From: a virus
Lineage: Duplodnaviria; Caudoviricetes
Direction: 5' to 3' (one strand)
Virus record (IMG/VR): IMGVR_UViG_3300029811_000124
Location: 1 to 53,502 of that record
DNA: 53,502 nt
Shown here: piece by piece, positions 21,917 through 52,179 of the stretch
Position numbering within the stretch: the first letter of the stretch is position 1
Layout of the letters: each line of letters opens with the position of its first letter
Program-made: the position numbers and the translations under genes
Notes under the pieces: generated by a model
Databases searched by the model: none
Told to the model about the DNA's origin: nothing
What the model saw: only the letters and a program-made list of their open reading frames with translations

Positions 21917-22453
21917 TCAGGCATCTAATTCTCCTATATTATATTTACTAATCTCAATTCCACTTTCATTCAAGATTGTTTTAGAATAACTATCATATTC
22001 AGGACCTTCTAAATAAACTAATCTTTTTACTCCAGCATTAATAATTTCTATTGCACAATCCTTACATACTTGTCCACAGAAACAATATAGTGTAGTATCT
22101 TTTGTAGATATTCCATTTCTTGCCGCTTGAATTAAAGCGTTCCTTTCTCCATGTCCCGCTTGACAGAGATGTAATCCTTCACCAGATTTGTAACCTAAAA
22201 CTTTACGAGGACAACCATCTGGTATTGCCCCATCTATACTTTTTTCGTATACTTTTTCTTTATCTAAATTACAATAGAAATCCATTAATCTTTCATTACA
22301 GTGTTTAACTCCACGGCTTGGTCCATTATATCCTGTACTAACAATCGCCTTATCCTTAACTAATACTGCTCCAATTTTACGAGATAAACAAGATGAGTTT
22401 TTAGATACTTCTCTTGCGATACGGAGAAAATATAAATCAAACTTCTTACTCAT
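21917..22453 (-). CDS. dCMP deaminase
   Basis: SSCLSRKIGAVLV, TGYNG, HGERNAL, CKDC, INAGV. Confidence 0.92.
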   Translation of the reverse strand: MSKKFDLYFLRIAREVSKNSSCLSRKIGAVLVKDKAIVSTGYNGPSRGVKHCNERLMDFYCNLDKEKVYEKSIDGAIPDGCPRKVLGYKSGEGLHLCQAGHGERNALIQAARNGISTKDTTLYCFCGQVCKDCAIEIINAGVKRLVYLEGPEYDSYSKTILNESGIEISKYNIGELDA

Positions 22454-24549: not shown

Positions 24550-26082
24550 TTAATACTCCCATTTATTTTCCTTTAACCATTTATTGTATCTTCGCAAAAT
24601 CTGTTCAAAGGTAACCGGCATAAAATCCCAAACATCACAACTTATATTTATAGCGTCCGTGTGTAGATTTCCTTTTCTAATTCTTTTAATTTGCCAAGCA
24701 CTATTACACATAATTATAACTTTACCATTTCTACGGGTAACTATAGTATCCAATGGTACATTAACACACCAAAGAATACCTTGATATTCCCTTTTTACCA
24801 AGTTATCGGTATTAAATGTTGTAAATTGTTTATCCAATAGTATAGTTAAAATATAATTTTGCTTACGATTACTGTTTTTAGTAAGTTTTTTTGCAGAAAT
24901 TGAACATTTATGACCATTTAATACACAAATTTCTTGTAATAAATCAGACTCTATTTTTTTTGATGTAGAAATCTGTATGTATATATGTTTACCTAAATAT
25001 TTAATACCATCGGTATGAGAATATTCTTCTAACAGAATTTTTGCTTGATGTTTAGATACTTTTCTCAAAAATTCTGGCAATCTTTTTCCATCTTTAAAAA
25101 TTTCTATAAATTTCGTTAACTCCTTTGATTTTAATAAATTAATCCTATAAGGTATTAAAATTTGTTGACTCTCTATTTTACATTTATTTATAGTATATTT
25201 AATATTAAGTTTATTTAATAACAATATTAATCTATCTATTTTTCGTTGTTTACTGAGTTTAAAACGTATAAATGGTGTTTTACCATCGTATGATATACTA
25301 CCATCGGCCGCTATCCAAACAATTAATTGTATTTCATCATCTGTTATATTTAAACCATTATAGTTTATATTTCCCGAATTATAGTAGTAATAAATTGTAT
25401 TTTTTTTATCTAACAATCCTTTAGATATACTTTCTTTAAACCCTTTACTATTATGTTTCCTTATATATAATCTATGTTTTTCAGATATCCCAAAATTGGT
25501 TGAACGGGACTCTAAAGTTATTATTGGTTGTTCTGTTTTCTCTATTTTTATATAATTAATATTATTTAATTCCAAATTTTTGGTTAACTTATTAAGAGAT
25601 ACTACCAAATCTGATTTGGTAATATTGGTGTGGTTTTTCCAACCATTTTCAGTTAGTATTTCTGTTTTTTCGTCTAAGCAGTGTACGTGCCCACAGAAGT
25701 TTATATCATAGTTAAAATTAACATGCTCAGGTTTATGTACTAAAAATACTCTTTTTCCACCATATCTAATAACTATATTTTCTATTATAGTTTTACATCC
25801 ATTGTTAACTGTGTGATTACCCTTAATATGGATAATTTTTCCATTTAACTGTTTATCATAATCTATAGCTTTTTTAATAGTACCTTCTCCTTTTTTACCC
25901 CCTGGACTGTTATGAAAATTCCAATCTCCCAAATCAAATATAATATCATCCTTTTTAACCCTGCTATTCCAATTGGAAATTATTTTGGCATCCATTTCCT
26001 CTACATTCTTAAATGGACGATTACAATACCGGATAATATTGGCATGCGAAAAATGTGTATCTGAGATATACCAATTATTCAC
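24550..26082 (-). CDS. Calcineurin-like metallophosphoesterase, intein-containing
   Basis: ISDTHFSH, DLGD, KGNH, H.P, CGHVH then intein, INISCDVWDF.PV. Confidence 0.9.
   Translation of the reverse strand: MNNWYISDTHFSHANIIRYCNRPFKNVEEMDAKIISNWNSRVKKDDIIFDLGDWNFHNSPGGKKGEGTIKKAIDYDKQLNGKIIHIKGNHTVNNGCKTIIENIVIRYGGKRVFLVHKPEHVNFNYDINFCGHVHCLDEKTEILTENGWKNHTNITKSDLVVSLNKLTKNLELNNINYIKIEKTEQPIITLESRSTNFGISEKHRLYIRKHNSKGFKESISKGLLDKKNTIYYYYNSGNINYNGLNITDDEIQLIVWIAADGSISYDGKTPFIRFKLSKQRKIDRLILLLNKLNIKYTINKCKIESQQILIPYRINLLKSKELTKFIEIFKDGKRLPEFLRKVSKHQAKILLEEYSHTDGIKYLGKHIYIQISTSKKIESDLLQEICVLNGHKCSISAKKLTKNSNRKQNYILTILLDKQFTTFNTDNLVKREYQGILWCVNVPLDTIVTRRNGKVIIMCNSAWQIKRIRKGNLHTDAINISCDVWDFMPVTFEQILRRYNKWLKENKWEY
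24703..25680 (-). mobile_element. Intein (326 aa) with LAGLIDADG endonuclease
   Basis: CLDEKTEILTENGWK ... WIAADGS ... YSHTDG ... WCVNV...RRNGKVIIMCN followed by S+1. Confidence 0.9.
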
Positions 26083-31183: not shown

Positions 31184-32070
31184 TCTTTTAATTTTCTACA
31201 CAAATCTGTATATGCTTCCATTGGAGTATTACCTTTACCTATAAAATAACACTCACTTTCAATTTCCCAGAAATCATCACATGTTATATCATCAGAATTT
31301 ATAGCATCAGGAATATTATTAAATTCTATTTGCCACGCAGTCCATTTCCCACCAGAATAAGAACCACAATATCTATCATGAACTATAGTGCAAGGATATA
31401 TTTTTTCCATATTATTTTACTTTTTCCGATAACTTATCATATAACAAACATATAGCCCCTGACAAAGCATTAATATCCGCAAATTGAGCAGGCATAGCTT
31501 GTATAGCTAAACAACTTGACCTTAAAGTTTCATCCCTTCTTAATTCTTCTGGAGTCCTAAATTTGTTATCACCTACCGCCGGTAATATTTTTGGTGTTTT
31601 TTTAATAATATTCACAAGCATTAATAGCCTTTTTCCACTTTCATCTTTTTCATATTTTACATTTACTTCATCGCCTTTATTTATTGTATCCAAAATTTTA
31701 GCAACCTCTGGAGTTTTGGTATACCAATCTTTTGTATCTGGAGTATTTCCAATTCTATAATAATTCTTATCTTTGCTAATAGCATATATTATCATTGTAT
31801 CTCCTCTATTTCTCAAAAGCTTCTTCTAATGGAATTAAAAAATTAATCTTTACTTTTCCTCGATTTAATAAATAAGCTTCCAAAAATAATCTGTTTTCGA
31901 TTATTTCTCCACATTTTTCACATTTATATCCATAATGATTGACTGGAAGTTTCGAAACAAATACCTCCAAAGTCTTTTCTTTTAAAATTTTCTTTATTTT
32001 ATCTTCAACTATATCAACTGCTGACTTTTCTTTTGATTCTTTTTGTTTTTTCATATTTCTCCTATAAAAA

Positions 32071-37951: not shown

Positions 37952-38191
37952 TTATTCTTTTATTATTATTTTATTATTAGGATTTCCACTCCCAATTTTT
38001 TTCAACTTTAATTCGTCACCATATCCATAACATACACCATTTATATAACCTGGACATCCATAGTTTTCATTACAACAATAACACTTTTCAATTGGACAAC
38101 ATTTAATTTCTTTTATAACAAATCTTATTTTTCTCACAAAAGGAAGAGTTTCTACCATATCTCCAATCTTTAGTTTTTTTAGTTTCTTCAT
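37952..38191 (-). CDS. NPN-tag family small protein (Cys-rich SH3/KOW-like)
   Basis: LKIGDMVE ... CPGYINGVCYG ... GSGNPNNKIIIKE. Confidence 0.75.
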   Translation of the reverse strand: MKKLKKLKIGDMVETLPFVRKIRFVIKEIKCCPIEKCYCCNENYGCPGYINGVCYGYGDELKLKKIGSGNPNNKIIIKE

Positions 38192-38208
38192 TTTTTCCTT
38201 ATATATTT

Positions 38209-38466
38209 TTATACTTCTAATACTATATTGGAATTTATACTTTTCTCTCCAATCTTTGTTAAACTAAAACCTGGAGTATATCCAAAACACTTGCCATTTA
38301 TATGACCCGGACAAATACTTATATCATATCCATCTGTACATCTTTCATTATGAGCTAAACAATCACACTTTGTTGTTGACTGTATAAGAAATTTACATCC
38401 AATCTTGTTCAAATTATAGTGGTTTTTGTTAATCTCAACAAAATCTCCAATCTTAAATTTACTCAT
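38209..38466 (-). CDS. NPN-tag family small protein (Cys-rich, degenerate tag)
   Basis: FKIGDFVE ... CPGHINGKCFG ... KSINSNIVLEV. Confidence 0.7.
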   Translation of the reverse strand: MSKFKIGDFVEINKNHYNLNKIGCKFLIQSTTKCDCLAHNERCTDGYDISICPGHINGKCFGYTPGFSLTKIGEKSINSNIVLEV

Positions 38467-38716
38467 ATGTTTCTTTTACAATTATATTATTATTAGGGTT
38501 AGATATTCCAATTTTTTTCAAATGATAAACATTCCCCCTTCCAAAACACCTATCATTTACATAACCAGGACAAATATAACTTTTACCATAAGCACGTAAA
38601 CATTCTTCCCTATTTCTACAATCTGAAATTGTTTTTATAATAAATTTATATTTACTAACTCCAAAATTATCTATTACTACATCTCCCACTTTAAATTTCA
38701 CTTTATTTTCTCCCAA
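38459..38716 (-). CDS. NPN-tag family small protein (Cys-rich)
   Basis: FKVGDVV ... CPGYVNDRCFG ... GISNPNNNIIVKE. Confidence 0.75.
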   Translation of the reverse strand: MGENKVKFKVGDVVIDNFGVSKYKFIIKTISDCRNREECLRAYGKSYICPGYVNDRCFGRGNVYHLKKIGISNPNNNIIVKETYE

Positions 38717-39534
38717 TATCTATCTTTAGCTTCATCTATTGTTACATCATAATATATTAAAGTTGATTGAATATTTTTATGCCCCAATAGTTTTTGAGCA
38801 ACTCTAATATTTAATCCTTTTCTAGCTAACAATCTCCCAAATCCGTGCCTCAAAATATGTAGAGTTAATCTTTTTCTGTTGGGAACAAAATCCTTTAAAT
38901 CATTTATTAAATATGCCAATTGTCCAATAGTTATATTAAAGGCGTTGGTTATTTCTGGATAAGTATTAAAATATAAATCAACATTTCTCTTTACTTTTTC
39001 AGTAAAAGGAACTTCTCTCTCCATTCTATTTTTAATCTTACCTTTAACATATACTGTTAATCTATCTAAATCAATATTCTCTCTTTTTAAATTAATAAAT
39101 TCTTGCTTTCTCAGTCCTGTAAAAAATAAAAAATATAATATTGCTCTCAACTTTATTGGGTCTATAAAATAACAAAAACTCATTCCCATAGATACTATTT
39201 CATCTAACTCTTCCTCTGTAATGTAGGAATGAATCTTTTTTGTTTCTTTCAACATTTTAATTTTATAGATATATTTTAATAATTCTTCATTACAGCTACC
39301 CTCTCTTATTAAAAATTTATAAAAACATCTTATAGCTTTGATATCATTATTTATAGTATTATTTTGCCATCCTTTGTTTTTTAAATATATAATATATTCC
39401 ATATAGTTTTCAAATGTCAAATTAATATAATCTATACCTTTCTCACCACAGAATTTTAAAAAACTTCTAATCTTAATATAATAGGTATAATGATAATCAA
39501 CTATTTTTAAATAGTCTTCAAATTTTTTTAACAT
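38698..39534 (-). CDS. Tyrosine recombinase (XerC/D-like)
   Basis: TGLRKQE, K, HILRH, LLGH, T..Y catalytic residues. Confidence 0.93.
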   Translation of the reverse strand: MLKKFEDYLKIVDYHYTYYIKIRSFLKFCGEKGIDYINLTFENYMEYIIYLKNKGWQNNTINNDIKAIRCFYKFLIREGSCNEELLKYIYKIKMLKETKKIHSYITEEELDEIVSMGMSFCYFIDPIKLRAILYFLFFTGLRKQEFINLKRENIDLDRLTVYVKGKIKNRMEREVPFTEKVKRNVDLYFNTYPEITNAFNITIGQLAYLINDLKDFVPNRKRLTLHILRHGFGRLLARKGLNIRVAQKLLGHKNIQSTLIYYDVTIDEAKDRYWEKIK

Positions 39535-39537
39535 AAT

Positions 39538-39810
39538 TTATAATGCCCTCACTACTATTTTATTATTGGGATTTGTTTCGCCAATTATTTTTAGATTGTT
39601 ATAAGTTTCACCTCCCCCCGGATATTCACACAATACCCAATAGTCGTTACATCCTCCACCATTAACTTTGTCTTCTTTTTTCACACAACAACCATTTAAA
39701 TGATTTCGTTTACAATTACCTTTTATACCATTTATACATTTCACTATTCCTTTTGAGGAGTAATTAAAAGATATATAATCTCCTACTTTTAAATCTCTTG
39801 TAGTTATCAT
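39538..39810 (-). CDS. NPN-tag family small protein
   Basis: LKVGDYI ... GETNPNNKIVVRAL. Confidence 0.75.
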   Translation of the reverse strand: MITTRDLKVGDYISFNYSSKGIVKCINGIKGNCKRNHLNGCCVKKEDKVNGGGCNDYWVLCEYPGGGETYNNLKIIGETNPNNKIVVRAL

Positions 39811-39820
39811 ATTATTCCTT

Positions 39821-40057
39821 TTATTCCTTAATTATTATATTGTTATTAGGATTTATAGAATCTATTTTATATATTATTCTTCTACCTTTATCATCAAATT
39901 CATTATAATTGGTATTTACAGAATTGTCAAAATGAATTTCATAAACTGTACCTTTGTTGGTCCCAAAAGAATTAAAAATAACTCCTTGAAAATCTCTAAG
40001 ATTTCTCTCTTTATCTTTATTAGTATTCCAAAAAACTCTATCTCCTACTTTCAACAT
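39821..40057 (-). CDS. NPN-tag family small protein
   Basis: LKVGDRV ... SINPNNNIIIKE. Confidence 0.75.
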   Translation of the reverse strand: MLKVGDRVFWNTNKDKERNLRDFQGVIFNSFGTNKGTVYEIHFDNSVNTNYNEFDDKGRRIIYKIDSINPNNNIIIKE

Positions 40058-40076
40058 ATTCCCCTATTTTTCATAT

Positions 40077-40358
40077 TTACATCTTTATTATTATATTATT
40101 ATTCGGATTAGATATTCCAGTTAATTCCAAATCGCCTTCTATATAACCATTTGTTATCCTTTCATCCCATTCATCCCATTTAACTCTATATTTAAAAAGA
40201 CTGTCATTACGAACTTCAATAATTCTTCCTACTGTCTTACCACAGATACCTCCCCATAGTGGATTATATTTTGAATCAGAAAAACGTCCACTTATATATT
40301 TAACTTTATCTCCAATTTTAAAACATCTCTTTGAATCTTTCTCTAAAAAACTTGGCAT
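40077..40358 (-). CDS. NPN-tag family small protein
   Basis: FKIGDKVKY ... YRVKWD ... GISNPNNNIIIKM. Confidence 0.75.
   Translation of the reverse strand: MPSFLEKDSKRCFKIGDKVKYISGRFSDSKYNPLWGGICGKTVGRIIEVRNDSLFKYRVKWDEWDERITNGYIEGDLELTGISNPNNNIIIKM
40087..40118. repeat. 32-bp perfect direct repeat (second copy 50246-50277)
   Basis: attattatattattattcggattagatattcc at both loci; encodes GISNPNNNII. Confidence 0.9.
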
Positions 40359-41040
40359 ATAACTTCCTCCTTCTTCTATTCAGTCTTGGTGCACTATTAA
40401 CTTCTAATATATAAAATTTTCTATCTAAACCTAACATAATATCTACCGCTCCAAAATCATAGTTTAGTGCTTTAATAGCTTCAATCCCTAATTTTTTGAG
40501 AGTTTCGTTATGTTCTCCATCATAATCCACTTGTCCCCATCCTCTATCTCTTGACCAAATATGAGGATGATTGGAACTATCTTCAAATTTAAACTTTGTA
40601 GAAATACCAATTACCTCGTCTCCACAAACATGAACTCTAAATTCAGTTTCTTTAGGTATGTATTCCACAAAATAATGTCTTTTATTCACCCTTTTTTTCC
40701 TTCTTAGCCAACTTACTCTATTTCTAATATAAATAGCCTCTTTCCCTTTACAATGAAAATATTTTCTTGCAATCACAGGATAGCTATATGTTCTACTTCT
40801 ATTCCAATCAATTAAAGAAACATTTGGAGCATTTAACCCAGCTTCTTTAAATTTTATGATTTGAGTATATTTATTATTAATAAGTTTAGCATTTAAATTG
40901 GCTTTATTTCTTACATCTGTTCTACCATAATTTACTAAAAAATTAACATCTTCCGGTATAACATATCCCCCTTCACAATCCTTTAAATGAAAAGCCAAAT
41001 TAACTGCTGTTTCTCCTTTTCTTGTTCCTACTATGTACAT
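40318..41040 (-). CDS. ATP-grasp ligase (RimK-like)
   Basis: NKY, YPVIARK, EYIP..EFRVHV, DFGAVDI, YILEVNSAP. Confidence 0.9.
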   Translation of the reverse strand: MYIVGTRKGETAVNLAFHLKDCEGGYVIPEDVNFLVNYGRTDVRNKANLNAKLINNKYTQIIKFKEAGLNAPNVSLIDWNRSRTYSYPVIARKYFHCKGKEAIYIRNRVSWLRRKKRVNKRHYFVEYIPKETEFRVHVCGDEVIGISTKFKFEDSSNHPHIWSRDRGWGQVDYDGEHNETLKKLGIEAIKALNYDFGAVDIMLGLDRKFYILEVNSAPRLNRRRRKLYAKFFRERFKEMF

Positions 41041-41057
41041 TCATACCTCCCTTTTTT

Positions 41058-41309
41058 TTATAACTCTAATAGTATATCACTATTTGGATTACCTCTAAAT
41101 ATCTTTAACCAATTTCCTCCATCATTTGCCAATGCCCAAGTATTATTCCATCCTGAACCTCTTTGACCATCTTCTCTTTCTACAGAAAAATAGCCTCTCT
41201 CTTTATTTTTTCTTACCACTTTTCCTTTAACGTGAAGTTCGGAGAGAGATAAAAATACTATTTCATCTCCTACTTTTAATTTTCTAATTATATCTATTTC
41301 AGATCTCAC
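41058..41309 (-). CDS. NPN-tag family small protein
   Basis: LKVGDEI ... RGNPNSDILLEL. Confidence 0.75.
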   Translation of the reverse strand: MRSEIDIIRKLKVGDEIVFLSLSELHVKGKVVRKNKERGYFSVEREDGQRGSGWNNTWALANDGGNWLKIFRGNPNSDILLEL

Positions 41310-42330
41310 TTTCTAACTCCTCTATTGTCAAAAGACCTTTTACGGTTATACGTCTACCTCTAGCTGTTCTCGAAATTAAATTTTCTCCCAAAAGATATGG
41401 CTCTATACAATAGAGATAGTTTTCTGTAGAAGTATTTAAGTAACTTGCTAAACCCTGAAGTCCAACAGTTTTCTCTTGAGCAACATACTTTAAGATTTTT
41501 AAATCTTTATTAGTATAACCATCTTTAATTATATCAAAACTATTAATTACTTCTTTAATGTCTCCTCTAAAGTATATAGTTGCTTCTAATAATCTTAACA
41601 AAGTTCTTGGAGTTCCTCTACAATTTTTAGATATTATTTTATATATCTCCGGATGTAATCCATCGAAAGGAAACATCATTTTTCTATACTGTTTACATAT
41701 TTTAGTCAAATCTTCCAAATCATAGTTTTCTAATTCAATAATAATTTTAAACCTATCATAAAAAGGTCTTCTGTCTTTTAAAATTTCTCCCAATTCAGTA
41801 GTAGCTCCCATTAATGTAAAAGGCTCAATACTTTCCCCTTCAAAATAAAAATCTTCCATTATAGTATATAATTTCTCTACTTCATCCCTTCCAATTGAAT
41901 GAATTTCATCTAAGAACAAAATCCCTCCATTTACCCTTCTTACTGATTCTATAAATTTTTCAAAATTTTTCATTTCACTAGCTATATTTTCCACCAAAGA
42001 AACTTCAAGTTCATTGGCAATTATTTTAGCTAAAGTTGTTTTACCCATTCCTGGATTTCCGTGAATAAGAGTATGAGGAAAAACCAATTTTCTTTCAATA
42101 ATAGCTCCAATATAATTATCGAAAATTTTCTTAGCCCTCTTTTGACCAATATATTCATCAAAAGTCTTAGGTCTAAATAAACTAGGTTTGGTAGTTATTT
42201 TGTTTTCCAGATTTATTTTGTCTTCATCTAGAAAATCAAATAACTTTTTAACTTTATTAAACATTTTCCTACTTCTTCTCCTTTTTTTACAGTTTAATAA
42301 TTTGAATAAGTAAGTAAACAATCTGGACAT
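41299..42330 (-). CDS. ruvB: RuvB-like AAA+ ATPase
   Basis: RPKTFDEYIGQ, GNPGMGKTTLA, FLDEIH, LY..MEDF, FTLMGATT, DRF, RGTPR, EPYL..RT.RGR. Start probably MFNKVK. Confidence 0.9.
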   Translation of the reverse strand: MSRLFTYLFKLLNCKKRRRSRKMFNKVKKLFDFLDEDKINLENKITTKPSLFRPKTFDEYIGQKRAKKIFDNYIGAIIERKLVFPHTLIHGNPGMGKTTLAKIIANELEVSLVENIASEMKNFEKFIESVRRVNGGILFLDEIHSIGRDEVEKLYTIMEDFYFEGESIEPFTLMGATTELGEILKDRRPFYDRFKIIIELENYDLEDLTKICKQYRKMMFPFDGLHPEIYKIISKNCRGTPRTLLRLLEATIYFRGDIKEVINSFDIIKDGYTNKDLKILKYVAQEKTVGLQGLASYLNTSTENYLYCIEPYLLGENLISRTARGRRITVKGLLTIEELESEI

Positions 42331-43316
42331 AAAGGAAACTCATTATATTTTTTAACCAATTTTGAAATCATAAATTCTTCATTACAAGCACCACAATAAT
42401 CAGTTTCCAATTTTAGAAAACCTCTTCTAACTTTTTGTCTACATTTTCTACATAGAAAAAATCTCTTTTCCTTTTCATTCTGAATAGGTCTTACATTTTT
42501 ATAAGAATAACAATTCTCACATTCACCATAATATAAATCATCATCTCCTTTACCAACTTTAGAATATAACCCCTTTACTTTTTCTCTTTTATCTTTTTTA
42601 TCTTTTTTCTCCTCAACTTTCGTTTCTTGATTTCCTTTCAATCTCGAATTTCGAGAATTTTCTAATAATTTTGTTCGACTTCCCTCATACCTATACTTAT
42701 TAAATCCACAATAAAGAACTCTTGTTTCATAACTTCTATTACTATAATAAATTTCTCCACTATCTACTTTTTCTTTTACAAACTCTCCTAGAAACAATAA
42801 TGAACCATCTTTATTCAAAAAAGTAAGTTTGTTATAACTCCCTATCATTTCTACGATTAATTTCTGGAGGACGTCATTTTTATAAATATTTTTTCTCACC
42901 ATTTTATCACTTAATATTGTCATAATAAAATTTTGAGTATCACTTAAATCTCCCATTTTGCTGTTGAAACCATACATTACTCCATTGTGTGCTACTGCTA
43001 AATCACAGTTCATACTAACTTTCCTAATTACCTTTTCATCTTTTGTCAAAGGAAAAGGATGTCTATTCCCTTCATCTACTAATCCACATGTTGCATTTCT
43101 AAAATGAACAATTAAACTATCTTCTTTTTCAATATGCTTTCTCAACCAGAAAATTAAATGTTCTACATTAACAAAGTCTTTTTTAATTATAACTTTATTA
43201 GTTTCTTTCTTCCAATAACAAATTCCAGCCCCATCACTGTTACCAGAATAACCATTTCTCAAATGTTCGTCATTCGGTAAACTAACACCTTTAGCTTTAG
43301 CAACAATTAAACACAT
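42294..43316 (-). CDS. Class II glutamine amidotransferase (Ntn) with C-terminal zinc ribbons
   Basis: N-terminal MC, N.DGAG, HFR.AT.G, HPF, AHNG, SDT. Confidence 0.9.
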   Translation of the reverse strand: MCLIVAKAKGVSLPNDEHLRNGYSGNSDGAGICYWKKETNKVIIKKDFVNVEHLIFWLRKHIEKEDSLIVHFRNATCGLVDEGNRHPFPLTKDEKVIRKVSMNCDLAVAHNGVMYGFNSKMGDLSDTQNFIMTILSDKMVRKNIYKNDVLQKLIVEMIGSYNKLTFLNKDGSLLFLGEFVKEKVDSGEIYYSNRSYETRVLYCGFNKYRYEGSRTKLLENSRNSRLKGNQETKVEEKKDKKDKREKVKGLYSKVGKGDDDLYYGECENCYSYKNVRPIQNEKEKRFFLCRKCRQKVRRGFLKLETDYCGACNEEFMISKLVKKYNEFPLCPDCLLTYSNY

Positions 43317-43357
43317 AAACCCTCCTTAATTAATATTAATTAAACTAACTTTATTTT

Positions 43358-44785
43358 CTACAATGCAGATTTTTTAAAATAACCTACCATATGACCATAT
43401 CTATGTTGTTCTCCCGCCCATTTTTTGAAACCAATCCAAGATTTAGCTTTTAGTAAATAAACAGCAGAAACATCCTTTATAAAATGTGATATTGCATCAC
43501 AATATTGTAAAGTAGCTAAAAATCTATCAATATTTAAAGTTCCTCTAAATATTCTTAATTCAATAGTTGGCTTACCAGTTTCAATGTTTAAACAAATATG
43601 TCTTCCACCTTGAGATTGATTTTTATTAAAATATTTATCCTTCGAAAAATTCTCACTTGCACAAAACTCATTTCCAGTAGATCCTCTTTTTGAAAAACTA
43701 TATATCTTTTCGTAATTAACAGAGTGAAATATCCTCATTTTTTTAATATCTTTAGGAGTGAAAAAACTCTTGGATAAATGTATATGTAATCCACATTTTC
43801 CTCCCCAGTAAGATACAAAACTATTTTCTTTTAGCCATTTCAAAATATATTTGAATCTCATATTTTTATGAGCGTGTTGCAAACTAAAAGGGTGAGTTAC
43901 AATTTCAAATCCTATTTTGTGACCATTATTATCTCTCAAACTACCATCTTCTTTAAAATAAAAATCACTATAAAGTTTTTCCTGAGAAAGAAAATCTTTT
44001 AGATCCTCAGCCTTATTTTCACAATCTTTACATTGTACTTCTAATTCCAAGCCCATCATTAAATCATTATCCCATTTGTTTTTATTAAACTTTAATTTTC
44101 TGGGCATATATGTATAATTTTTAATTATTTTTTCCTCTTCAAAACAAGAAGTGCAATAATAAAGGTTTCTTCTTTCATTAAATCTTAAATTTCTTTTGAA
44201 AAATAAATCTCCACATTTACCACAAATATTGAAAGTAGATTCATAGCAACCTTTACAATAATCTTTATTTTCCAAACCTTTCTTTGTTTCTTTAAGTTTT
44301 TTCTCTTTATTACAAACTACACAAATAGTAAATTGTTTTTTATAACAATTATTACAGTAAAAATCTTTGGCAAGAGAAAACTTTCCTAAAGTTTTTAGCA
44401 AAAACTCTCCACAATGTTTACATATCTCGTAATTCTTAAAACAACTTCTACAAACCCTATAGCCTTGGATTTTTTTCATTAGAGAGCCTCTACATATTTC
44501 CCCACAATCTTCACAAGAAAAATGTTTAATGCCTCCAATAATTCTACCGTTCATATTTCTTTTTATTTTAGTAATACTGGACAAATATACCGGCCAGATA
44601 GGATTTTTTTCTCCAAAATCCTTGCTTAGTTTGTAGAATCTAATCATAGCTATTTTGTTGTTACTAGTTTCATCAACAGCAAACCCCACAATCCTGCCTT
44701 CAGATCCTTCACTACTATAAATATAACTCTTACCTCTTCCGTTAACCTTCACATAACTACCAATCCTCAAATCTGCACTAGCCAC
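43358..44785 (-). CDS. Putative amidoligase (COOH-NH2 ligase type 2) with N-terminal SH3-like and multiple CxxC repeats
   Basis: GLELEV, KEDGSL, FEIVTHP, CGLHIH.S, TIELRIFRGT. Confidence 0.88.
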   Translation of the reverse strand: MASADLRIGSYVKVNGRGKSYIYSSEGSEGRIVGFAVDETSNNKIAMIRFYKLSKDFGEKNPIWPVYLSSITKIKRNMNGRIIGGIKHFSCEDCGEICRGSLMKKIQGYRVCRSCFKNYEICKHCGEFLLKTLGKFSLAKDFYCNNCYKKQFTICVVCNKEKKLKETKKGLENKDYCKGCYESTFNICGKCGDLFFKRNLRFNERRNLYYCTSCFEEEKIIKNYTYMPRKLKFNKNKWDNDLMMGLELEVQCKDCENKAEDLKDFLSQEKLYSDFYFKEDGSLRDNNGHKIGFEIVTHPFSLQHAHKNMRFKYILKWLKENSFVSYWGGKCGLHIHLSKSFFTPKDIKKMRIFHSVNYEKIYSFSKRGSTGNEFCASENFSKDKYFNKNQSQGGRHICLNIETGKPTIELRIFRGTLNIDRFLATLQYCDAISHFIKDVSAVYLLKAKSWIGFKKWAGEQHRYGHMVGYFKKSAL

Positions 44786-44786
44786 C

Positions 44787-45023
44787 TTACACCTCCTTAA
44801 TTATTATATTAGAATTAGGGTTGGTTTTACCTAATACTATTAATTCTCTATCACAAAACCATAAATCCTTTTCATTTAACTCCTCATCTTTAAACTTCAC
44901 TTTCCAACAAAACCTATCCTCAATCCACTTGCATATAATACCAGTTTTTCCTATATAGTTAAAATAATCTTCATAATCCTGGGTTATATCTATAACCTTA
45001 ACTTTTTTACCTATCTCAACCAT
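44787..45023 (-). CDS. NPN-tag family small protein
   Basis: IGKKVKV..GKTGII..WKVKF ... GKTNPNSNIIIKEV. Confidence 0.75.
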   Translation of the reverse strand: MVEIGKKVKVIDITQDYEDYFNYIGKTGIICKWIEDRFCWKVKFKDEELNEKDLWFCDRELIVLGKTNPNSNIIIKEV

Positions 45024-45270
45024 ATTTAACTATTATCCCCGAATTAGGACATCCAACAGATTTCATAAATTTTTTGTCAATCCACCTACAATAACCGTTC
45101 TTCCCTGAGCCGAGACAATCGTGACCACTTCTAACTTTTTCAACAAATTCTACTCCATAATAATCTTTACCAAAATTAGAGACACATATTACCTTGCCTC
45201 TTAATCCATTAAGTTTAAAAGTAGGATAATTTCTATGGTAACAATTAACTTCTATTTTTTTACCTATCAC
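45016..45270 (-). CDS. NPN-tag family small protein (CAP-Gly-like SH3 variant)
   Basis: YGVEF...GHDC.G.GK.G.C.W ... VGCPNSGIIVKYG. Confidence 0.7.
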   Translation of the reverse strand: MIGKKIEVNCYHRNYPTFKLNGLRGKVICVSNFGKDYYGVEFVEKVRSGHDCLGSGKNGYCRWIDKKFMKSVGCPNSGIIVKYG

Positions 45271-45491
45271 AATAATATATCATTATTAGGGTTATCTTCC
45301 ATTATTTCTATATCTTTTAATGACATCCAACCAAAACCAAATGAATCGATTTTCACCTTTTTAACATTATATGACCAATATGCCCATATTTTCTTACCTT
45401 CTACCTTTACTATTCTACCATATCTCCAGATATCACGGCAAGGATCGAGATATCTAATAATAGATCCAATTTTTGCCTCTCTATTCTTCAT
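45267..45491 (-). CDS. NPN-tag family small protein
   Basis: KIGSII ... EDNPNNDILL. Confidence 0.72.
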   Translation of the reverse strand: MKNREAKIGSIIRYLDPCRDIWRYGRIVKVEGKKIWAYWSYNVKKVKIDSFGFGWMSLKDIEIMEDNPNNDILL

Positions 45492-45699
45492 ATTTAACTA
45501 TTATCCCTGAATTGGGACATCCTGCTTTTTCAAAATTTGACTCACAAAACCAATGAGGATATTCTTTTAATTTAATAGCATCAATTCCACTTACTATTTT
45601 AACCTCTTCAATCGTTCCAACATCTCCAATTTTTATAGGAGTACAATCGCAGACTATCCTTTTAACCCTATCTCCAACTTTAAGTTTCATTATTTTCAA
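45481..45699 (-). CDS. NPN-tag family small protein
   Basis: LKVGDRVKR..IGDVGTI ... AGCPNSGIIVKYEE. Confidence 0.75.
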   Translation of the reverse strand: MKIMKLKVGDRVKRIVCDCTPIKIGDVGTIEEVKIVSGIDAIKLKEYPHWFCESNFEKAGCPNSGIIVKYEE

Positions 45700-45953
45700 A
45701 GTTTAATTATTATATTGTTATTGGGATTAGATGTTCCTACATATTTAAATCTTTTATTTTTCATAGAATAAATTTTTTTAGTTTTAATACTTTTTACACA
45801 ATATAACCCTGTAGAATTGGCTCCGTAATTCTTAAATCTTTTAAGAATAACAATATCTCCCATAAAAGAATGAGGGGAGCCCAAACTTACAACTTTTAGC
45901 ACATCTCCAATTTCTATTTTATCGCTCATAAATGCGTTTCCCTGCGTTTTCAT
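45696..45953 (-). CDS. NPN-tag family small protein
   Basis: IEIGDVLKV ... GTSNPNNNIIIKL. Confidence 0.75.
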   Translation of the reverse strand: MKTQGNAFMSDKIEIGDVLKVVSLGSPHSFMGDIVILKRFKNYGANSTGLYCVKSIKTKKIYSMKNKRFKYVGTSNPNNNIIIKL

Positions 45954-46034
45954 ATTAAGGCATATTAGTACACACCTTTAACACTAAAATCGATTCTAGA
46001 CCTATCCTCGTGTTATTAAACACTATTCTGGTAA
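45932..46034. repeat. Intergenic element, copy B (inverted relative to 6862-6988)
   Basis: See copy A. Confidence 0.9.
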
Positions 46035-46040
46035 GGGGTC

Positions 46041-46316
46041 TTAATCATCCCACCCTTTTACCACTATATCTGGACAATTTACATTACCTACCTTTTTTAA
46101 CGAATAAACAATATGACCATTAGGATCGAAAGTATTTAATCCAAAACACATACCATTTATTTTATCTTCACATCCCAAATTTCCACAAGGTCCGATTATA
46201 CAAGTAGTTATTGTTTCAATTTTAAAAGGAGAACTTCCCCCATATTGAGATATTTCCTCTTTTGGGAAATTTTCAGGGAAATCTACTTTTACCATATCTC
46301 CAATTTTAAATTCCAT
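46041..46316 (-). CDS. NPN-tag family small protein (Cys-rich, degenerate tag)
   Basis: FKIGDMVKV ... CEDKINGMCFG ... VGNVNCPDIVVKG. Confidence 0.65.
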   Translation of the reverse strand: MEFKIGDMVKVDFPENFPKEEISQYGGSSPFKIETITTCIIGPCGNLGCEDKINGMCFGLNTFDPNGHIVYSLKKVGNVNCPDIVVKGWDD

Positions 46317-46730
46317 ATTACCAATCCTTCCCTAGTTGAAAATTAATTCTCAAGTTACAACTCTTACCCATTTTATAATAGCTTATTCTTATTCTCCACC
46401 ATAACAAATCAAAAAATACATATTTAGTTCTTTTTAACTGTAAAACTCCTTTTTTAATACTCATATTCCGACTCCTATTAAATTTGGAAATGACAATTAA
46501 GCATATTGGAAAAATAACCAAAATAAATGTTTACAAAGCGACTCCTTGGCATATAATATAAGTGTAGCTTAAAAGAGGTAAGTTATTAGTACCAGTCTTG
46601 GTTTTATATTTCTATATTTTCCACTCTTTTTTAAACATAGGTCAGGATTGTCAATAAAGAAATCCTTAACTCCTTTATACTCTACATTTTATACTAATAG
46701 GGATTGAACACTATATAGACAACTTTACTA

Positions 46731-47294
46731 TTATTTCTTTGTCTCCTCTTCTTCTAACCTTCTAGCTTCATTTAAAATATCAATCTTATTCTGTTTCAAA
46801 ACAAGACCACCAATAAAATTATCGGTTATCTGACTACCAAGATGTTTTTGTACTAATAACGCATTAGCTGTTTTTACATAAGTATCACTAATTACTTTTT
46901 TCATTTCATTTTCTCCTGTTTTATTTACCAATCTTAAATTCTTAAATTCGACTCGTTGATCACAGAGTTTTCCCTTTTTATTTCCTCTACAATTTGTACC
47001 ATTTACGTCTAACACTATAAAAGTTTCACCAGCGTTCCAATAACTACCATCAGCTTTATTCTTCAATACTTCTACTTCATCTCCAACTTTAAACTTATAT
47101 TTACTCACCTCCTCTTTTTCTACTGTACCTAATAGAATAAAAGATTTAGAACTATGATTGCCACCACCTGGAAATTCTTTTAATATTAAAGTTCCAAATT
47201 TTACATCAGTAATTGTTCCAACATCTCCCACTTTCATTCCATTATGATCCCCCATAACCCTTTTTACAATATTACCAACCTTAAACTTACACAT
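46731..47294 (-). CDS. Protein with two tandem SH3/KOW-like modules, no NPN tag
   Basis: KFKVGNIVKR..VGDVGTI and KFKVGDEVEV repeats. Confidence 0.6.
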   Translation of the reverse strand: MCKFKVGNIVKRVMGDHNGMKVGDVGTITDVKFGTLILKEFPGGGNHSSKSFILLGTVEKEEVSKYKFKVGDEVEVLKNKADGSYWNAGETFIVLDVNGTNCRGNKKGKLCDQRVEFKNLRLVNKTGENEMKKVISDTYVKTANALLVQKHLGSQITDNFIGGLVLKQNKIDILNEARRLEEEETKK

Positions 47295-47873
47295 TACACC
47301 TCCTCCGATTCTTTTAGTTTTAATAATAAATCTTTAACTTCTGCTCCAAATGTTTTATTTAACCATTTTAAATATATTTTTAATAATCCTCTTTTAACTA
47401 TAAATTTGTACGCATATGTATGTAGCATATAATGTAAACATCCTTTAATTTTAACCTTATTTTTATAAGTTCCATCTTTACTTCCACTAAGATGATGTTT
47501 TTCAAACTTACTTATCCATATCATATTAACTATCTCTTTAAAGTCTTTAGACTTTTTAGAAGATATTTTACCTTCTTTATTTAAAACATCAATCCTATTT
47601 AATAATGTTTTTAATTTCATTCTTCCTCTTCAGTCCATTCATAGTGAGAACATTCTAAAACTTTATGGTTACTATAAACACTTGTTTTATTATTTGTAAT
47701 TCTTTCCGTTCCATATATTTCAAATAATTCAGGTATTCTACACCTAATAACCTTCTCTTCTTTTTCAAATATACCATAACCATATTCTTTACTTCTCCTT
47801 TCCTCTTCTAATATTTCACCAAAACTTTTGTAATACATTAAAAACTCCTATTTTGGTTTTACCATATTGACAT

Positions 47874-47902
47874 ATTATACAATTCGGATTATCCTCTAAC
47901 AA
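47874..47902 (-). promoter_or_regulatory. Sigma-70-like promoter
   Basis: TTGTTA-N17-TATAAT on minus strand, just after the Ubl terminator and ~35 nt before the next ATG. Confidence 0.5.
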
Positions 47903-47917
47903 AATAATTATAAATAC

Positions 47918-47945
47918 AATTAAGGGAGAATTAACTCCCTTAATT
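47918..47945 (-). terminator. Hairpin terminator after the Ubl gene
   Basis: Perfect 11-bp stem AATTAAGGGAG / CTCCCTTAATT, 6-nt loop, AT-rich tail. Confidence 0.65.
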
Positions 47946-47951
47946 TTAAAA

Positions 47952-48179
47952 CTATCCTCCCTGTACAGCAGTTACTACTGTAATCAGATCTCCTTTCTTT
48001 AACATATAAGTTTTATTAACCACTTTACCGTTCACTCTAATTGCGGAATTATATGTTAAATCTTTCTTTTTCAGTAACTCATCCAGAGAAATGGGTTTAG
48101 ATAGTTTAATGTTTTTAGCTTGTTCTGCTAACTTAGCTAAAATCACAACTATACTTTTGGATGCTACACGTCTAGCCAC
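47952..48179 (-). CDS. Ubiquitin-like beta-grasp protein (ThiS/MoaD/Ubl) with C-terminal GG
   Basis: SL.ELL, IRVNG, LKKGD.I.VV..VQGG*. Start GTG after GGAGGTGA. Confidence 0.85.
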   Translation of the reverse strand: MARRVASKSIVVILAKLAEQAKNIKLSKPISLDELLKKKDLTYNSAIRVNGKVVNKTYMLKKGDLITVVTAVQGG

Positions 48180-48210
48180 ACTGATCACCTCCTTTTTTGT
48201 TAGATTTTTA

Positions 48211-48975
48211 TCACTTTACTATTCCATATGATAAATTTTTAACTTCTCCTCTTTTATAACTTTGTTCTACTATTATTACATTATTATTTCCCAATGAAAT
48301 AATATATGCTTCTTTAAAACCTCTACATAATTGTCTTAAAGATGGTCCTCTATCATATTCAGGTTCACCGTCAAATTTACCTATTCTTAATATTCCACAA
48401 GGTATTAATTTTTCTTTTATTAGAGTTACCATACCTTCACTCATTGTAGAAGTGGAAATTGCAACCATTCTATGGCAATTATCTCCTGCTCCTCTTTTAA
48501 GTCTAGTTATTTTTCTAATAATATTTTTCTTATCTTTTCCTAACATATAACAATAAGGATAAGCTTCATTATTTCTATGGTTATTCCAAAATTTAACTCT
48601 TAATTTACATATCTGATTATATATTTCTTTAGATATTAATACATCAGTATCGGGTTTTTTAATTTTCTTTTTTTGTTTTAATTTCTTTTTTGGAGAGAAT
48701 CTATTTATTTTTTCTAAACCTTTCACTGTTGTTATTATTGTTCTATTCCTACAATCTATTTCACAACTTACTAAACAATAAATATGTCCACGATGATTTA
48801 TTTTTTTGATTAATATTCCTTCTCTTCCTGTTCTGACAAAATTGTAAGCATACCATTTTGCTACTTCGGGATGTTTTTCTTCTATTTTTTTAATTTTATT
48901 CAGAAACCACTCTCCTATTACAGTTCTAATTTCAGAAGTATCAACGATTTTTACTTTATCTCCAAGTTTAATCAT
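48211..48975 (-). CDS. N-terminal SH3-like domain plus putative inactive MPN/JAB-like domain
   Basis: LGDKVKIVD; VLIS..IY..I ... CYMLG ... IPCGILRI ... AYIISL follows MPN spacing but lacks HxH. Confidence 0.4.
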   Translation of the reverse strand: MIKLGDKVKIVDTSEIRTVIGEWFLNKIKKIEEKHPEVAKWYAYNFVRTGREGILIKKINHRGHIYCLVSCEIDCRNRTIITTVKGLEKINRFSPKKKLKQKKKIKKPDTDVLISKEIYNQICKLRVKFWNNHRNNEAYPYCYMLGKDKKNIIRKITRLKRGAGDNCHRMVAISTSTMSEGMVTLIKEKLIPCGILRIGKFDGEPEYDRGPSLRQLCRGFKEAYIISLGNNNVIIVEQSYKRGEVKNLSYGIVK

Positions 48976-48985
48976 ATTACTCCTT

Positions 48986-49657
48986 TTATTTTGTATCCAT
49001 ATAAATCATATTAGTCAACCCAAATATCAATTCTTTAGGGAAGTTTCTTTCCTTCTTAACTATACTCTTTACTGCTCTACATATTAAACTTGAAATCATC
49101 ATTACACAGTAAATAATAGACCTCTCTGAACAAGGTAAATTCACAGGTTTTACTTCAAAAGTTTTTCCATAGAATTTTATTAACTTTCTATCTTTGGATT
49201 TTATTATGAAGATATGAGCCAATTCTCCCCCCATTCTTCCATCAATAAAATGTTTTGTTTTAGATTGTTTTAAGAATTGATTCCAAACTACCTTTCTAGA
49301 CTCTAAAGAATCTGTACAAGTTATCACCATTTCGCTTAACTTTTCTTTAGTGTAAAACTTTTTGTATATCTTTACCTTAGTGTCGGAGAAATCCTCTATT
49401 ATATCTTTCAACGCTTCAACTTTGAAACTGTCTAAATCTTTCTTCCTATAGAACTGGTTGGGTAAATTGTGTTCACTAACTCCATCTTCATCAAAGATTT
49501 CAATAGAACCAACTCCCATTTTAGCCAAACTTAAAGCAGTAAAACTACCAGTGGCTCCAGCTCCAATTATACTAACCTTTAAAGAAGATAATTTCCTCGA
49601 GTCAACAATCCCAGTTTGTCTATCGTATCTAATTCTTCCGTTTCTAATCCTTCGCAT
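48986..49657 (-). CDS. ThiF/E1-like activating enzyme
   Basis: RYDRQ, IIGAGATGS, FDEDGVSEHNLPNQ, K, CTDS..SR, IDGRMG, LPC. Confidence 0.93.
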   Translation of the reverse strand: MRRIRNGRIRYDRQTGIVDSRKLSSLKVSIIGAGATGSFTALSLAKMGVGSIEIFDEDGVSEHNLPNQFYRKKDLDSFKVEALKDIIEDFSDTKVKIYKKFYTKEKLSEMVITCTDSLESRKVVWNQFLKQSKTKHFIDGRMGGELAHIFIIKSKDRKLIKFYGKTFEVKPVNLPCSERSIIYCVMMISSLICRAVKSIVKKERNFPKELIFGLTNMIYMDTK

Positions 49658-50223
49658 ATCTCTACCCTCCTATTAAATCTTTCATATTCAACTTTTCTTT
49701 TTACTTCTCTATAACAATTTTCTTTTAATTTTCCTCTAATTGGTAAAACCTTTACTGGAATATCAGCTTGTTGACCTTTGTCATCAATTCTTCCTATCAT
49801 ATCTACATTTTTATTTATACATATAGACAATAAATAAGAATTTTCTGAATGTCTAGTAATATTATCTTCATCGGTTCCTGACCAATGAACTCCAAAGTCA
49901 TTATGAGAGTGCCACCATAGTTTCCATTTTCCTATATTTTCTCCTCTTCTAATTAACCTACCTAAAAATAAATGTAGAGTTTCTTCATCTAAAGATGTAT
50001 GAATTGATGTACACTTTTGTTTGAATATTTTAACATTAGTAACAATAATTCTATTACCTATCTTTTTTATCTTACCAAATCCTGAAATTTCTCCTCTAGC
50101 TTTTTGTGTATAATGAACCATTTTAGAATAAGCTAAATTTGATAATTCTAATTTTATATTTTTACCCCACCACTTCTCTAAAAGTAAATCTTCTGCTAAA
50201 TCCTCTTTAAAAAAATTCTTCAT
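49579..50223 (-). CDS. JAB/MPN+ metallopeptidase
   Basis: GEISGFG ... WWHSHNDFGVHWSGTD (E..HxH-x7-S-x2-D). Confidence 0.88.
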   Translation of the reverse strand: MKNFFKEDLAEDLLLEKWWGKNIKLELSNLAYSKMVHYTQKARGEISGFGKIKKIGNRIIVTNVKIFKQKCTSIHTSLDEETLHLFLGRLIRRGENIGKWKLWWHSHNDFGVHWSGTDEDNITRHSENSYLLSICINKNVDMIGRIDDKGQQADIPVKVLPIRGKLKENCYREVKRKVEYERFNRRVEICEGLETEELDTIDKLGLLTRGNYLL

Positions 50224-50235
50224 ATTATACCTCCT

Positions 50236-50439
50236 TCATATTTTAATTATTATATTATTATTCGGATTAGATATTCCTCTTAGTTTTAATTTATAATAAG
50301 TTTCTCCTAAAGAGTAACATGAGCCATTCCTGTCATTTTCCCAAGAATTATCGCTAACTACTGTTCCTGTAGAACCTTTACGTGCAAGCCCTGCGATTTG
50401 TTCTACAACTTTTATTTTATCACCTATTTTAAATTTCAT
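50236..50439 (-). CDS. NPN-tag family small protein
   Basis: FKIGDKIKV..GSTGTVV ... RGISNPNNNIIIKI. Confidence 0.75.
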   Translation of the reverse strand: MKFKIGDKIKVVEQIAGLARKGSTGTVVSDNSWENDRNGSCYSLGETYYKLKLRGISNPNNNIIIKI

Positions 50440-51087: not shown

Positions 51088-52179
51088 ATTACCTCCTTTT
51101 TAATATCTATTTTTAGTGTTGCTCGCCTTCTGGGTATCTTGTAGATATCTTTTGCTCTATTTTTATATTCATATCATTGGTTGTTTTGCCACAACTTTTA
51201 CATTTTTGATTTGGTATTACATTATCCCAATAGTTTCTATCATCATATGCACCATAGTTGGTTTTATGATTACCACAATTTTCACATTCTAAATCACAGA
51301 CACAGTCCCTTCTAAGTTGATTATAAATTTTTAATACTTTCATCTTTCCCTCCTTGTTAATTATATTTAAATCTCTAAATTAGCCCCTTTTATTATAACT
51401 GTATTTGCTAAATCCATTCCAGTTTTCAAATCAATTCCATTATTTTTATCATAGTAAGAAACATTTTTTATTTCCAGAGGATAACTATCTGTATCATATT
51501 GTAATTTTACTTTACAATTTCCTGGAATTTCCTTTAATACCTTTACTAAATCTTTAACAAGCATATTACCTCCCTATTCTTTTATATTATTCTCTATACA
51601 TTTTAACAAATCCTACAATTAAAACAATACAAGATATTAGAAACCATAGATAATTTGTTAGAGTAAAAGGTATGTTATTAATGTCCATAAATTTTCCTAA
51701 ACTCACTCCTCCTATAAATATTAAAATAAAAGCAAAAACCATATTATACCTCCTTTCTTTTTTATATTATTCCTTTTGTTAATTTTTTCTTATTTGTAAT
51801 TGGTGTATATCCAATTAGCATTAATATTAGTTGAGTTAGTTGGTCTGGTTTCTTTTTAGGTTGTTTTCTTTTCATACTACTCCTTTATACATCCATATCT
51901 GCTACTGGATACATGTGCACGTTATTTATTATCTCTTCCCATCTACTTCTATCTTCTACTACCTCAATTTCTTTAGCACCACCACTGCAATCATGAAAAG
52001 TATAATAGTCTTGGTCTTCAAATATTATAAAAGTTTTGCCATCATCAAACATTATATATCTAGCTTCAAAGTTTTTCTTTCTTTTGGAGAGAACCTTACT
52101 GTAAGAGTAATCTCTTTCACCCCTAATCTCTAATATTCTCATTCCTTTTAATGAATGTATTCCTATCATACTACCTCCT

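Follow-up and report, generated by a model that had tools for sequence, protein, structure and literature searches.

Why would a phage place the same short peptide at the C-terminus of many small proteins whose sequences are otherwise divergent? The question is raised by a locus in IMG/VR virus record IMGVR_UViG_3300029811_000124, a fragment of a phage genome whose 53,502-nucleotide (53.5-kb) contig, hereafter the window, is also the entire assembly. The initial annotation of positions 37952–50439 described 14 mini-proteins (minis) with variable SH3/KOW-like bodies and a constant ending of the form NPNxxIIxK (the tail), interleaved with protein-modifying enzymes, and proposed that the tail delivers bound targets to a viral modifying or unfolding machine. 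The minis constitute a new family of tail-sharing proteins with a conserved ligase association: a gene for a RimK-like ATP-grasp ligase lies among the minis in each of the three genomes in which we found arrays. Their mechanism would, in the reading that we favor with reservations, involve the tail as a genome-specific docking peptide.

All 14 minis are encoded on the minus strand by open reading frames (ORFs) of 67–93 amino acids (aa), at the positions and with the endings first reported. The N-terminal (F/L)K(I/V)GDxV strand is likewise confirmed, its Gly being invariant in the mini alignment. By position, the series begins with mini 1 (37952–38191, 79 aa), which has a Cys-rich SH3-like body and the tail GNPNNKIIIKE, mini 2 (38209–38466, 85 aa), with a Cys-rich body and the degenerate tail SINSNIVLEV, and mini 3 (38459–38716, 85 aa; tail SNPNNNIIVKETYE). 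It continues with mini 4 (39538–39810, 90 aa; TNPNNKIVVRAL), mini 5 (39821–40057, 78 aa; INPNNNIIIKE), mini 6 (40077–40358, 93 aa; SNPNNNIIIKM), whose start overlaps the end of the ATP-grasp gene by 41 nucleotides (nt), and mini 7 (41058–41309, 83 aa; GNPNSDILLEL), which overlaps the end of the gene for a RuvB-like protein. Further along are mini 8 (44787–45023, 78 aa; TNPNSNIIIKEV), mini 9 (45016–45270, 84 aa; GCPNSGIIVKYG), mini 10 (45267–45491, 74 aa; DNPNNDILL), mini 11 (45481–45699, 72 aa; GCPNSGIIVKYEE), mini 12 (45696–45953, 85 aa; SNPNNNIIIKL), mini 13 (46041–46316, 91 aa), with a Cys-rich body and the variant tail NVNCPDIVVKGWDD, and mini 14 (50236–50439, 67 aa; SNPNNNIIIKI), the member that we modeled. 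In about half of the window-type tails the last residues are K-E or K-E-E. Searches of the minis against Pfam and PHROGs gave nothing above noise and no family that explains them; the best Pfam match is SH3_12 (E 0.023), and no Pfam family matches more than one of the 14. A sub-family of minis (37952–38716 and 46041–46316) contains a Cys-rich insert, CPG(Y/H)(I/V)N(G/D)xC(F/Y)G, which is also present in the foreign proteins P0007, P0008, P0011, P0016, P0023, P0060 and P0064 and may form a metal-binding knuckle within the barrel.

A strict regular expression for the tail, applied to the six-frame translation of the whole window, gave 14 matches, every one of them six residues or fewer from a stop; in 200 shuffled versions of the window the mean was 0.055 matches and the maximum 2. 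Thirteen of the 14 minis are among the matches (mini 13, with its variant NVNCPDIVVKG, is not), and the remaining match is a new carrier, the fifteenth, outside the annotated span. This protein is a 960-aa Prim-Pol helicase with a LAGLIDADG intein (28301–31183, minus strand; tail core 28307–28330) that ends in ELEGTNPNNDIIVK and is the sole carrier in the window that is not a mini. The tail is absent from all 78 of its homologues (39–69% identity), which end in KELKRVDE followed by variable, mostly acidic ends. Since the helicase of this phage bears the tail as well, the tail is portable. Intein-like interruptions occur in three large minus-strand genes (3728–6079, 24550–26082 and 28301–31183), recognized in the helicase by a LAGLIDADG_3 match and in the 783-aa and 510-aa ORFs by eye only. 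The tail itself contains no HN and no Cys/Ser/Thr junction, and an intein or Hint remnant was rejected as its origin. A sortase- or PDZ-type C-terminal signal was likewise rejected, as between 0 and 5 residues follow the tail and a membrane segment is absent.

The tail is conserved well beyond the window. When 1.84 billion representative proteins were searched with a profile of the 14 minis, 137 matched at E ≤ 1e-3, of which 40 are small (≤110 aa; 10 from the window itself and 30 foreign). The tail lies within the last 16 residues of all 30 foreign small matches and of none of the 97 long matches; among the 85 long matches listed, an FKVGDRVRV-type module was seen by eye at the start of the protein or in repeats. 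Mean pairwise identity is 69% in the nine-residue tail core versus 30% in the bodies (n = 43). The same profile searched against a set of 5.8 billion proteins (word-filtered, with 9 and then 18 matches) added one more tagged protein, P0218, and several untagged SH3 minis. The untagged SH3-like minis P0223 and P0227, from other sources, end in QLLLFEVD and QLLLFDL, a different C-terminal motif on a similar small barrel, which we take to resemble the bacterial clamp-binding motif.

Related arrays were found in two further phage genomes. Scans for the window-type tail pattern in IMG/VR, JGI metagenome contigs and GTDB genome contigs gave chance matches only, none of them ending a small SH3-like ORF, and a search for loci related to protein P0122 gave nothing. 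An alignment of helicase homologues led to 45 related IMG/VR loci, and their flanks (up to 10 kb on each side; 3001 ORFs) contain no tagged mini. When the mini profile was compared with 26 whole records, any match was seen in four and arrays in two: G003 (109,385 bp with direct terminal repeats, GC 30.6%, an estimated 80% complete) and G014 (49,020 bp, GC 34.6%, an estimated 49% complete). IMG/VR scans for the other tail types and for the ATP-grasp returned only G003 and G014 again, and a G003 mini had no tblastn match among isolated phages.

G003 is syntenic with the window over 28.6–43.3 kb, with the gene order clamp loader, 237-aa protein, 237-aa ORF (in the place of the sigma gene, with no tblastn match to the sigma gene of the window), recombinase, RuvB-like, ATP-grasp, class-II glutamine amidotransferase (GATase) and amidoligase. 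It has 19 tails of the form (K/R)xIK(P/E)(Y/F)GIVxF(C/M)(K/R)(K/N)YY, 17 of them 4–9 residues from the stop. G014 has seven tails of the form IKRKGYALWIHNIExK, amid the same enzymes as in the window. A hidden Markov model (HMM) of the mini body alone, run on 6862 ORFs from the window, 11 relatives and the 45 loci, gave 15 matches in the window, 17 in G003, 6 in G014 and 2 weak ones elsewhere. Within the window, a mini-body HMM matches the 14 minis and a 187-aa ORF at 46731–47294 with two copies. The bodies cluster incompletely by genome: for 15 of 39 the top match comes from a different genome, and the body of window mini 10 has G003 mini A9 as its nearest counterpart (E 3e-9) although their tails differ in type. 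Some carriers are unusual. A G003-type tail stands on an 84-aa ORF (31028–31282) whose body is missed by the mini-body HMM (E ≤ 0.1), a 182-aa G003 protein (42726–43274) has an internal tail followed by a hydrophobic stretch, and a 138-aa G003 SH3 protein (40914–41330) has a long extra region ahead of its tail. A 40-aa ORF of G014 (21917–22066) is scarcely more than the G014-type tail.

Codon use in the tails indicates that selection acts at the level of the peptide. The variety of codons on which the initial annotation had based this view holds for 13 minis and the helicase: Pro is encoded by CCT (6), CCC (4), CCG (2) and CCA (1), Asn by both AAT and AAC, and Ser by TCN and AGT. At identical tail residues the same-codon share is 0.69 in the window versus 0.59 expected from codon usage, and 0.61 versus 0.59 in G003, where synonymous sites are thus random. 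These shares rule out recent gene conversion as the cause of tail sameness; copies of the tail DNA are 62–78% alike. As judged from these comparisons, the tails are uniform within a genome and differ between genomes with no homogenization at the DNA level. The excess in the window comes mainly from Ile: all 14 first Ile codons of the tails are ATA, as are 9 of 10 second ones, whereas ATA makes up about 50% in comparable contexts of the contig. The tails of minis 9 and 11 (GCPNSGIIVKY; 45021–45054 and 45489–45522) have 94% DNA identity over 34 nt, far above other pairs, which points to a recent duplication or local conversion between those two.

We modeled mini 14 with AlphaFold2 from an alignment of 44 tail-bearing sequences (mean predicted local distance difference test score, pLDDT, of 88). 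The model is a five-stranded barrel (strands 8–14, 24–27, 32–35, 41–43 and 49–53) with no secondary structure after residue 53 of 67; the ~13 terminal residues have pLDDT values of 50–70, with a mean of 60 for residues 61–67. Since the strands stop at residue 53, the window-type tail is predicted not to be a strand of the barrel, and the variable fold with a constant free tail that the initial annotation envisaged agrees with the model. In Foldseek searches the top matches of mini 14 were SH3 and Spt5-KOW domains, all weak (best E 0.041; template-modeling scores 0.44–0.59), with no match at E ≤ 0.001, and its look-alikes in the Atlas are SH3-like inserts of helicases and viral hypothetical proteins. 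For G003 mini A16 the model again shows a beta-barrel (mean pLDDT 84), and here the tail is predicted to be a helix (residues 74–83, pLDDT ~80) that follows the complete barrel.

We searched 92 ORFs of the window (at least 60 aa, minus strand) in 11 relatives, 8 of which are 90–100% complete. Just one of the 92, the 240-aa RimK-like ATP-grasp ligase (40318–41040, minus strand; phrog_2599, E 6e-23), is present in exactly the two array bearers, G003 and G014. Its Pfam RimK scores are above the cut-off of 21 in all three genomes (window 26.5 bits, G003 38.1 bits, G014 27.2 bits), and in all three it is flanked by minis on both sides, with gaps of −41 to +17 nt. The class-II GATase (340 aa, starting with MC; 42294–43316, minus strand; Pfam GATase_4) and the Amidoligase_2 enzyme (475 aa; 43358–44785, minus strand; Pfam and phrog_16683), which has Cys-rich (CxxC) repeats N-terminal of its catalytic domain, are found in G003, G014 and a third relative, G011. 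The RuvB-like protein is present in 9 of the 11 relatives at E ≤ 1e-30, with or without minis (there is also one weak cross-match on a clamp loader), and the tyrosine recombinase in 8. The genes for the ubiquitin-like protein (Ubl), E1 and JAB and a 254-aa ORF are found in none of the 11, including the array bearers G003 (80% complete) and G014 (a fragment), and no replication gene among the 92 ORFs shares the phyletic pattern of the arrays across the 11 relatives. The proposed tie between arrays and neighboring enzymes is supported for the ATP-grasp ligase, with GATase and amidoligase as near-matches, and is not supported for the RuvB-like protein or the Ubl/E1/JAB set. In a tree of UvsX, the window falls in a group with G011 and G005 (support 98/96), and G003 pairs with G007 (89/84). 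Because G011, G005 and G007 all lack arrays, the array and ATP-grasp set is patchy and does not mark one clade.

The C-terminal tails of proteins are substrates of ATP-grasp ligases of the RimK and TTL families, and the small carrier LysW has its tail loaded by LysX. From this chemistry, the phyletic pattern and the position of the gene, the ATP-grasp ligase is the best candidate for the reader of the tail. In the composite reading that we favor, and to which we give somewhat less than an even chance, the last 10–25 residues are a constant, genome-private peptide, free of the fold, on hypervariable bodies. This peptide would dock on one shared partner that co-evolves with it, and the variable barrels would provide differing binding surfaces. 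The candidate partner would be the RimK-like ATP-grasp inside the array, helped by the class-II GATase and the amidoligase, and the ligase module would either modify the tail-bearing proteins or employ them as exchangeable adaptors or carriers. A more specific form, which we think possible without expecting it, treats the tail as an address tag: the ligase module would read a private C-terminal tag on 7–20 hypervariable SH3-fold binders and, in the phage of the window, on the helicase, the binders would bring their targets to one modifying enzyme, and tag and reader would change jointly between phage lineages. A complex prediction for the ATP-grasp with mini 14 scored 0.00 against a mark of 0.32, an outcome of "no answer" that counts neither for nor against binding.

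Several observations weigh against the ligase as reader of a docking peptide. The array-bearing genomes known with their DNA number three, and the phyletic match rests on 3 versus 9. G011 has the GATase and the amidoligase with neither minis nor ATP-grasp, an ATP-grasp of ~30% identity occurs in seven isolated phages (in which minis were not looked for), and the gene table of the unrelated phage UFV-P2, as far as it was available, has the ATP-grasp/GATase/amidoligase set without such arrays (PMC3890496). No last residue is common to the three tail types (KE, KKYY and RKRK), which makes for a poor fit to an enzyme that, like RimK, would extend one defined C-terminal carboxylate. The modeled helix of the G003 tail may be packed on the barrel and be partly structural. 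The ATA bias at the tail Ile residues is an effect at the nucleotide or decoding level that a docking peptide does not explain. Finally, the true partner may lie beyond the window, because the window is a fragment and G014 and G003 are an estimated 49% and 80% complete.

The helicase, as the sole carrier in the window that is not a mini, brings another partner into consideration: the tail may dock on a replication or host hub (polymerase, single-strand binding protein, clamp or host chaperone), where the minis would be accessory factors or competitors. The variable acidic ends of helicase relatives at the same point, the location of the array directly upstream of a sigma-like gene, a 232-aa clamp-sized gene and a clamp-loader gene, and the QLLLF(E/D) endings of the untagged P0223 and P0227 are consistent with such a hub. 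However, the arrays' phyletic pattern is matched by no replication gene, the 232-aa ORF has no detectable family and is called a clamp from its size and position only, and the family-B DNA polymerase (PolB) of the window (18761–20881, minus strand) ends in ENQLSLF, unlike the tail. This ending and SMQLRIF of relative G001 (10534–12702) presumably resemble the bacterial clamp-binding pentapeptide; since PolB ends in ENQLSLF, the presumed clamp-docking motif differs from the mini tail. A sliding-clamp-binding tail (motif QL[SD]LF) was rejected in particular, as the mini tail has no Gln and no aromatic residue, and we rate the hub as a whole as unlikely. Still less do we expect a structural or self-association role with no separate reader, in which the tail, as an edge strand or capping helix, would stabilize the barrel or join minis in oligomers. 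The confident helix of the G003-type tail would suit such a role, as would the KIGDxV first strand, the only other conserved part of the minis, which could pair with a donated strand. But the window-type barrel is complete without its tail, which is modeled with low confidence and no secondary structure, and tails occur on the barrel-less helicase, on the 84-aa G003 ORF whose body the HMM misses and on the 40-aa ORF of G014; the 69% identity of the tails would also be unexpected if they were packed on bodies that are 30% identical.

It is improbable, in our view, that the tail is a virion-packaging or export signal, by which variable small proteins, along with the helicase, would enter the capsid and be injected. 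The logic would be T4-like, with many unrelated small proteins and one short terminal peptide that differs by lineage, but in T4 the signal lies at the N-terminus, ahead of a protease site, whereas the tail is C-terminal and only some tails contain an (I/L)xE site. The arrays lie in the replication and early region, the window has no virion gene from which a link could be drawn, and packaging leaves the exclusive tie to the ATP-grasp unexplained. Delivery of targets to the Ubl/E1/JAB conjugation set, or to the RuvB-like ATPase as an unfoldase, as the initial annotation had it, is suggested by position: mini 14 adjoins the JAB, E1 and Ubl genes, mini 7 overlaps the end of the RuvB-like gene, and the latter is flanked by minis in G003 and G014 too. 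With the conjugation genes and the 254-aa ORF in none of the 11 relatives, and a RuvB-like protein that has the domains typical of a DNA motor and is found mostly in relatives without minis, we regard this version as highly improbable. Scarcely credible is the proposal that the conserved 3' ends are DNA signals, either a promoter for the next gene or tyrosine-recombinase sites as in integron cassettes. AAT ATA ATA does include TATAAT, the ATA bias would fit, and a tyrosine recombinase gene lies within the arrays of the window, G003 and G014. Yet the other synonymous sites are near random, as in G003, Pro and Ser codons vary freely, the DNA copies are no more alike than the 62–78% given above, the peptide is kept in foreign proteins, and the recombinase is found mostly in relatives without arrays. 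A promoter scan of the region, which is AT-rich, gave 110 sites versus 85.5 ± 7.9 after shuffling; among the sites listed, the 60 strongest, there is no pattern at the tails. An integron-like cassette array was rejected: the cassettes' 3' ends show no recombination site conserved at the DNA level, given the near-random synonymous sites and the modest similarity of the copies.

The favored docking-peptide reading invites comparison with known systems. As in RimK with ribosomal protein S6, and in TTL/TTLL enzymes with tubulin tails, an ATP-grasp gene is tied to proteins with a free C-terminal tail; here, however, one enzyme gene is associated with 7–20 tail bearers per genome, and the tails are non-acidic with no common last residue. 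LysW, the partner recognized by the RimK-family ligase LysX, is like the minis globular, very small and extended at its C-terminus by a conserved stretch, and its terminal Glu is matched by the K-E tails. But LysW is a single-copy zinc-ribbon protein of an amino-acid pathway with an EDWGE tail, whereas the minis are SH3/KOW-like barrels in hypervariable arrays with no pathway enzymes nearby. A LysW-type carrier was rejected on these grounds, the bodies being SH3-like barrels and the tails (NPNxxIIxK, KPYGIVxFCKKYY and KGYALWIHNIE) containing no EDWGE. F-box and SOCS-box adaptors also combine a variable binder with a constant docking element. There is no homology to them, the constant element of the minis is a terminal peptide of 10–25 residues and not a folded box, and it differs by lineage, as would be expected with co-evolution of the reader. 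T4-type internal proteins form a comparable hyperplastic locus of unrelated small proteins that share a short terminal peptide, but the T4 capsid-targeting signal is N-terminal and cleaved, and the mini tail is C-terminal, in a replication region and tied to a ligase gene. Graspetide precursors are short and unfolded; they consist of a recognition leader and a core in which abundant Thr/Ser/Lys and Asp/Glu residues serve to form side-chain cross-links. The minis were rejected as such precursors, as they are predicted to be folded domains of 67–93 aa whose conserved part is C-terminal and has no cross-link residue pattern.

The GC content of the window is 24–31%, and its listed long genes are all on the minus strand. 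Its family-B DNA polymerase is at most 27% identical to those of T4-like isolates; it also encodes a UvsX-like recombinase, a tyrosine recombinase, a clamp-loader-like AAA+ protein and a protein with a weak sigma-factor match, and no Rfam family and no tRNA was found in it. Pfam bears out the identities first given to the neighbors of the minis, namely RimK-like ATP-grasp, class-II GATase, Amidoligase_2, a RuvB-like protein (RuvB_N and RuvB_C domains), ThiS ending in GG, and ThiF. The JAB gene has no Pfam match, and its assignment stands on a JAMM-like HSH...SGTD motif readable in the sequence. An SH3-like N-terminal module noted on two of the enzymes was seen by eye only: the mini-body HMM misses both the amidoligase and the 254-aa ORF at E ≤ 10. 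After its N-terminal LRIGSYVKV, the amidoligase reads KRNMNGRIIGGIK at residues ~70–85, which is loosely tail-like (N-x-N-x-x-I-I), maybe by chance. Two further small minus-strand ORFs, 51367–51564 and 3502–3717, end in ANTVIIKGANLEI and RNIVINQE, which are hydrophobic in the manner of the tail and have no NPN. A strong terminator-like hairpin (47945–47918, minus strand; 11 pairs followed by a T-rich run) lies directly 3' of the Ubl gene; it is the only strong one on the minus strand of the region and divides the Ubl/E1/JAB block from the remaining array. Distant from the array is a gamma-glutamyl cyclotransferase-like gene (11889–12218, minus strand; Pfam GGACT, E 1.6e-13), which has no match among the 11 relatives.

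Iyer et al. in 2009 reportedly proposed that phage ATP-grasp/GATase/amidoligase sets are peptide-modifying, and to our knowledge the protein substrates of these sets have never been identified. In the gene table of the LUZ24-like phage UFV-P2, as available, such a set is listed with a gamma-glutamyl cyclotransferase family beside the ATP-grasp (PMC3890496), and in OM43 phages the role of the set is described as unresolved in the accessible part of the report (PMC10580990). These sets comprise the same three enzyme families as the window, which also has the GGACT family and, as in UFV-P2, the set beside a primase-helicase region. The available portions of those two sources describe no repertoire of small proteins that share a tail, whereas in the window the enzymes are interleaved with one. 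No description of tail-sharing SH3 mini-protein arrays was found in the accessible full-text literature, and a mention in Iyer et al. 2009 or in supplements is possible. The locus therefore offers concrete substrate candidates for phage ATP-grasp/amidoligase sets, encoded on either side of the ligase gene in three divergent phages. If the ligase recognizes these proteins by the tail, the chemistry of the enzyme would be directly testable by mass spectrometry, one phage enzyme would be seen to address many proteins, and the tails and their ligases would form tag-and-reader pairs that are naturally orthogonal. With a replication or host hub as the docking site instead, the tail would be a new short linear motif in phage biology. 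Should the tail act as an address tag, the system would be a prokaryotic-virus counterpart to adaptor-based protein tagging.

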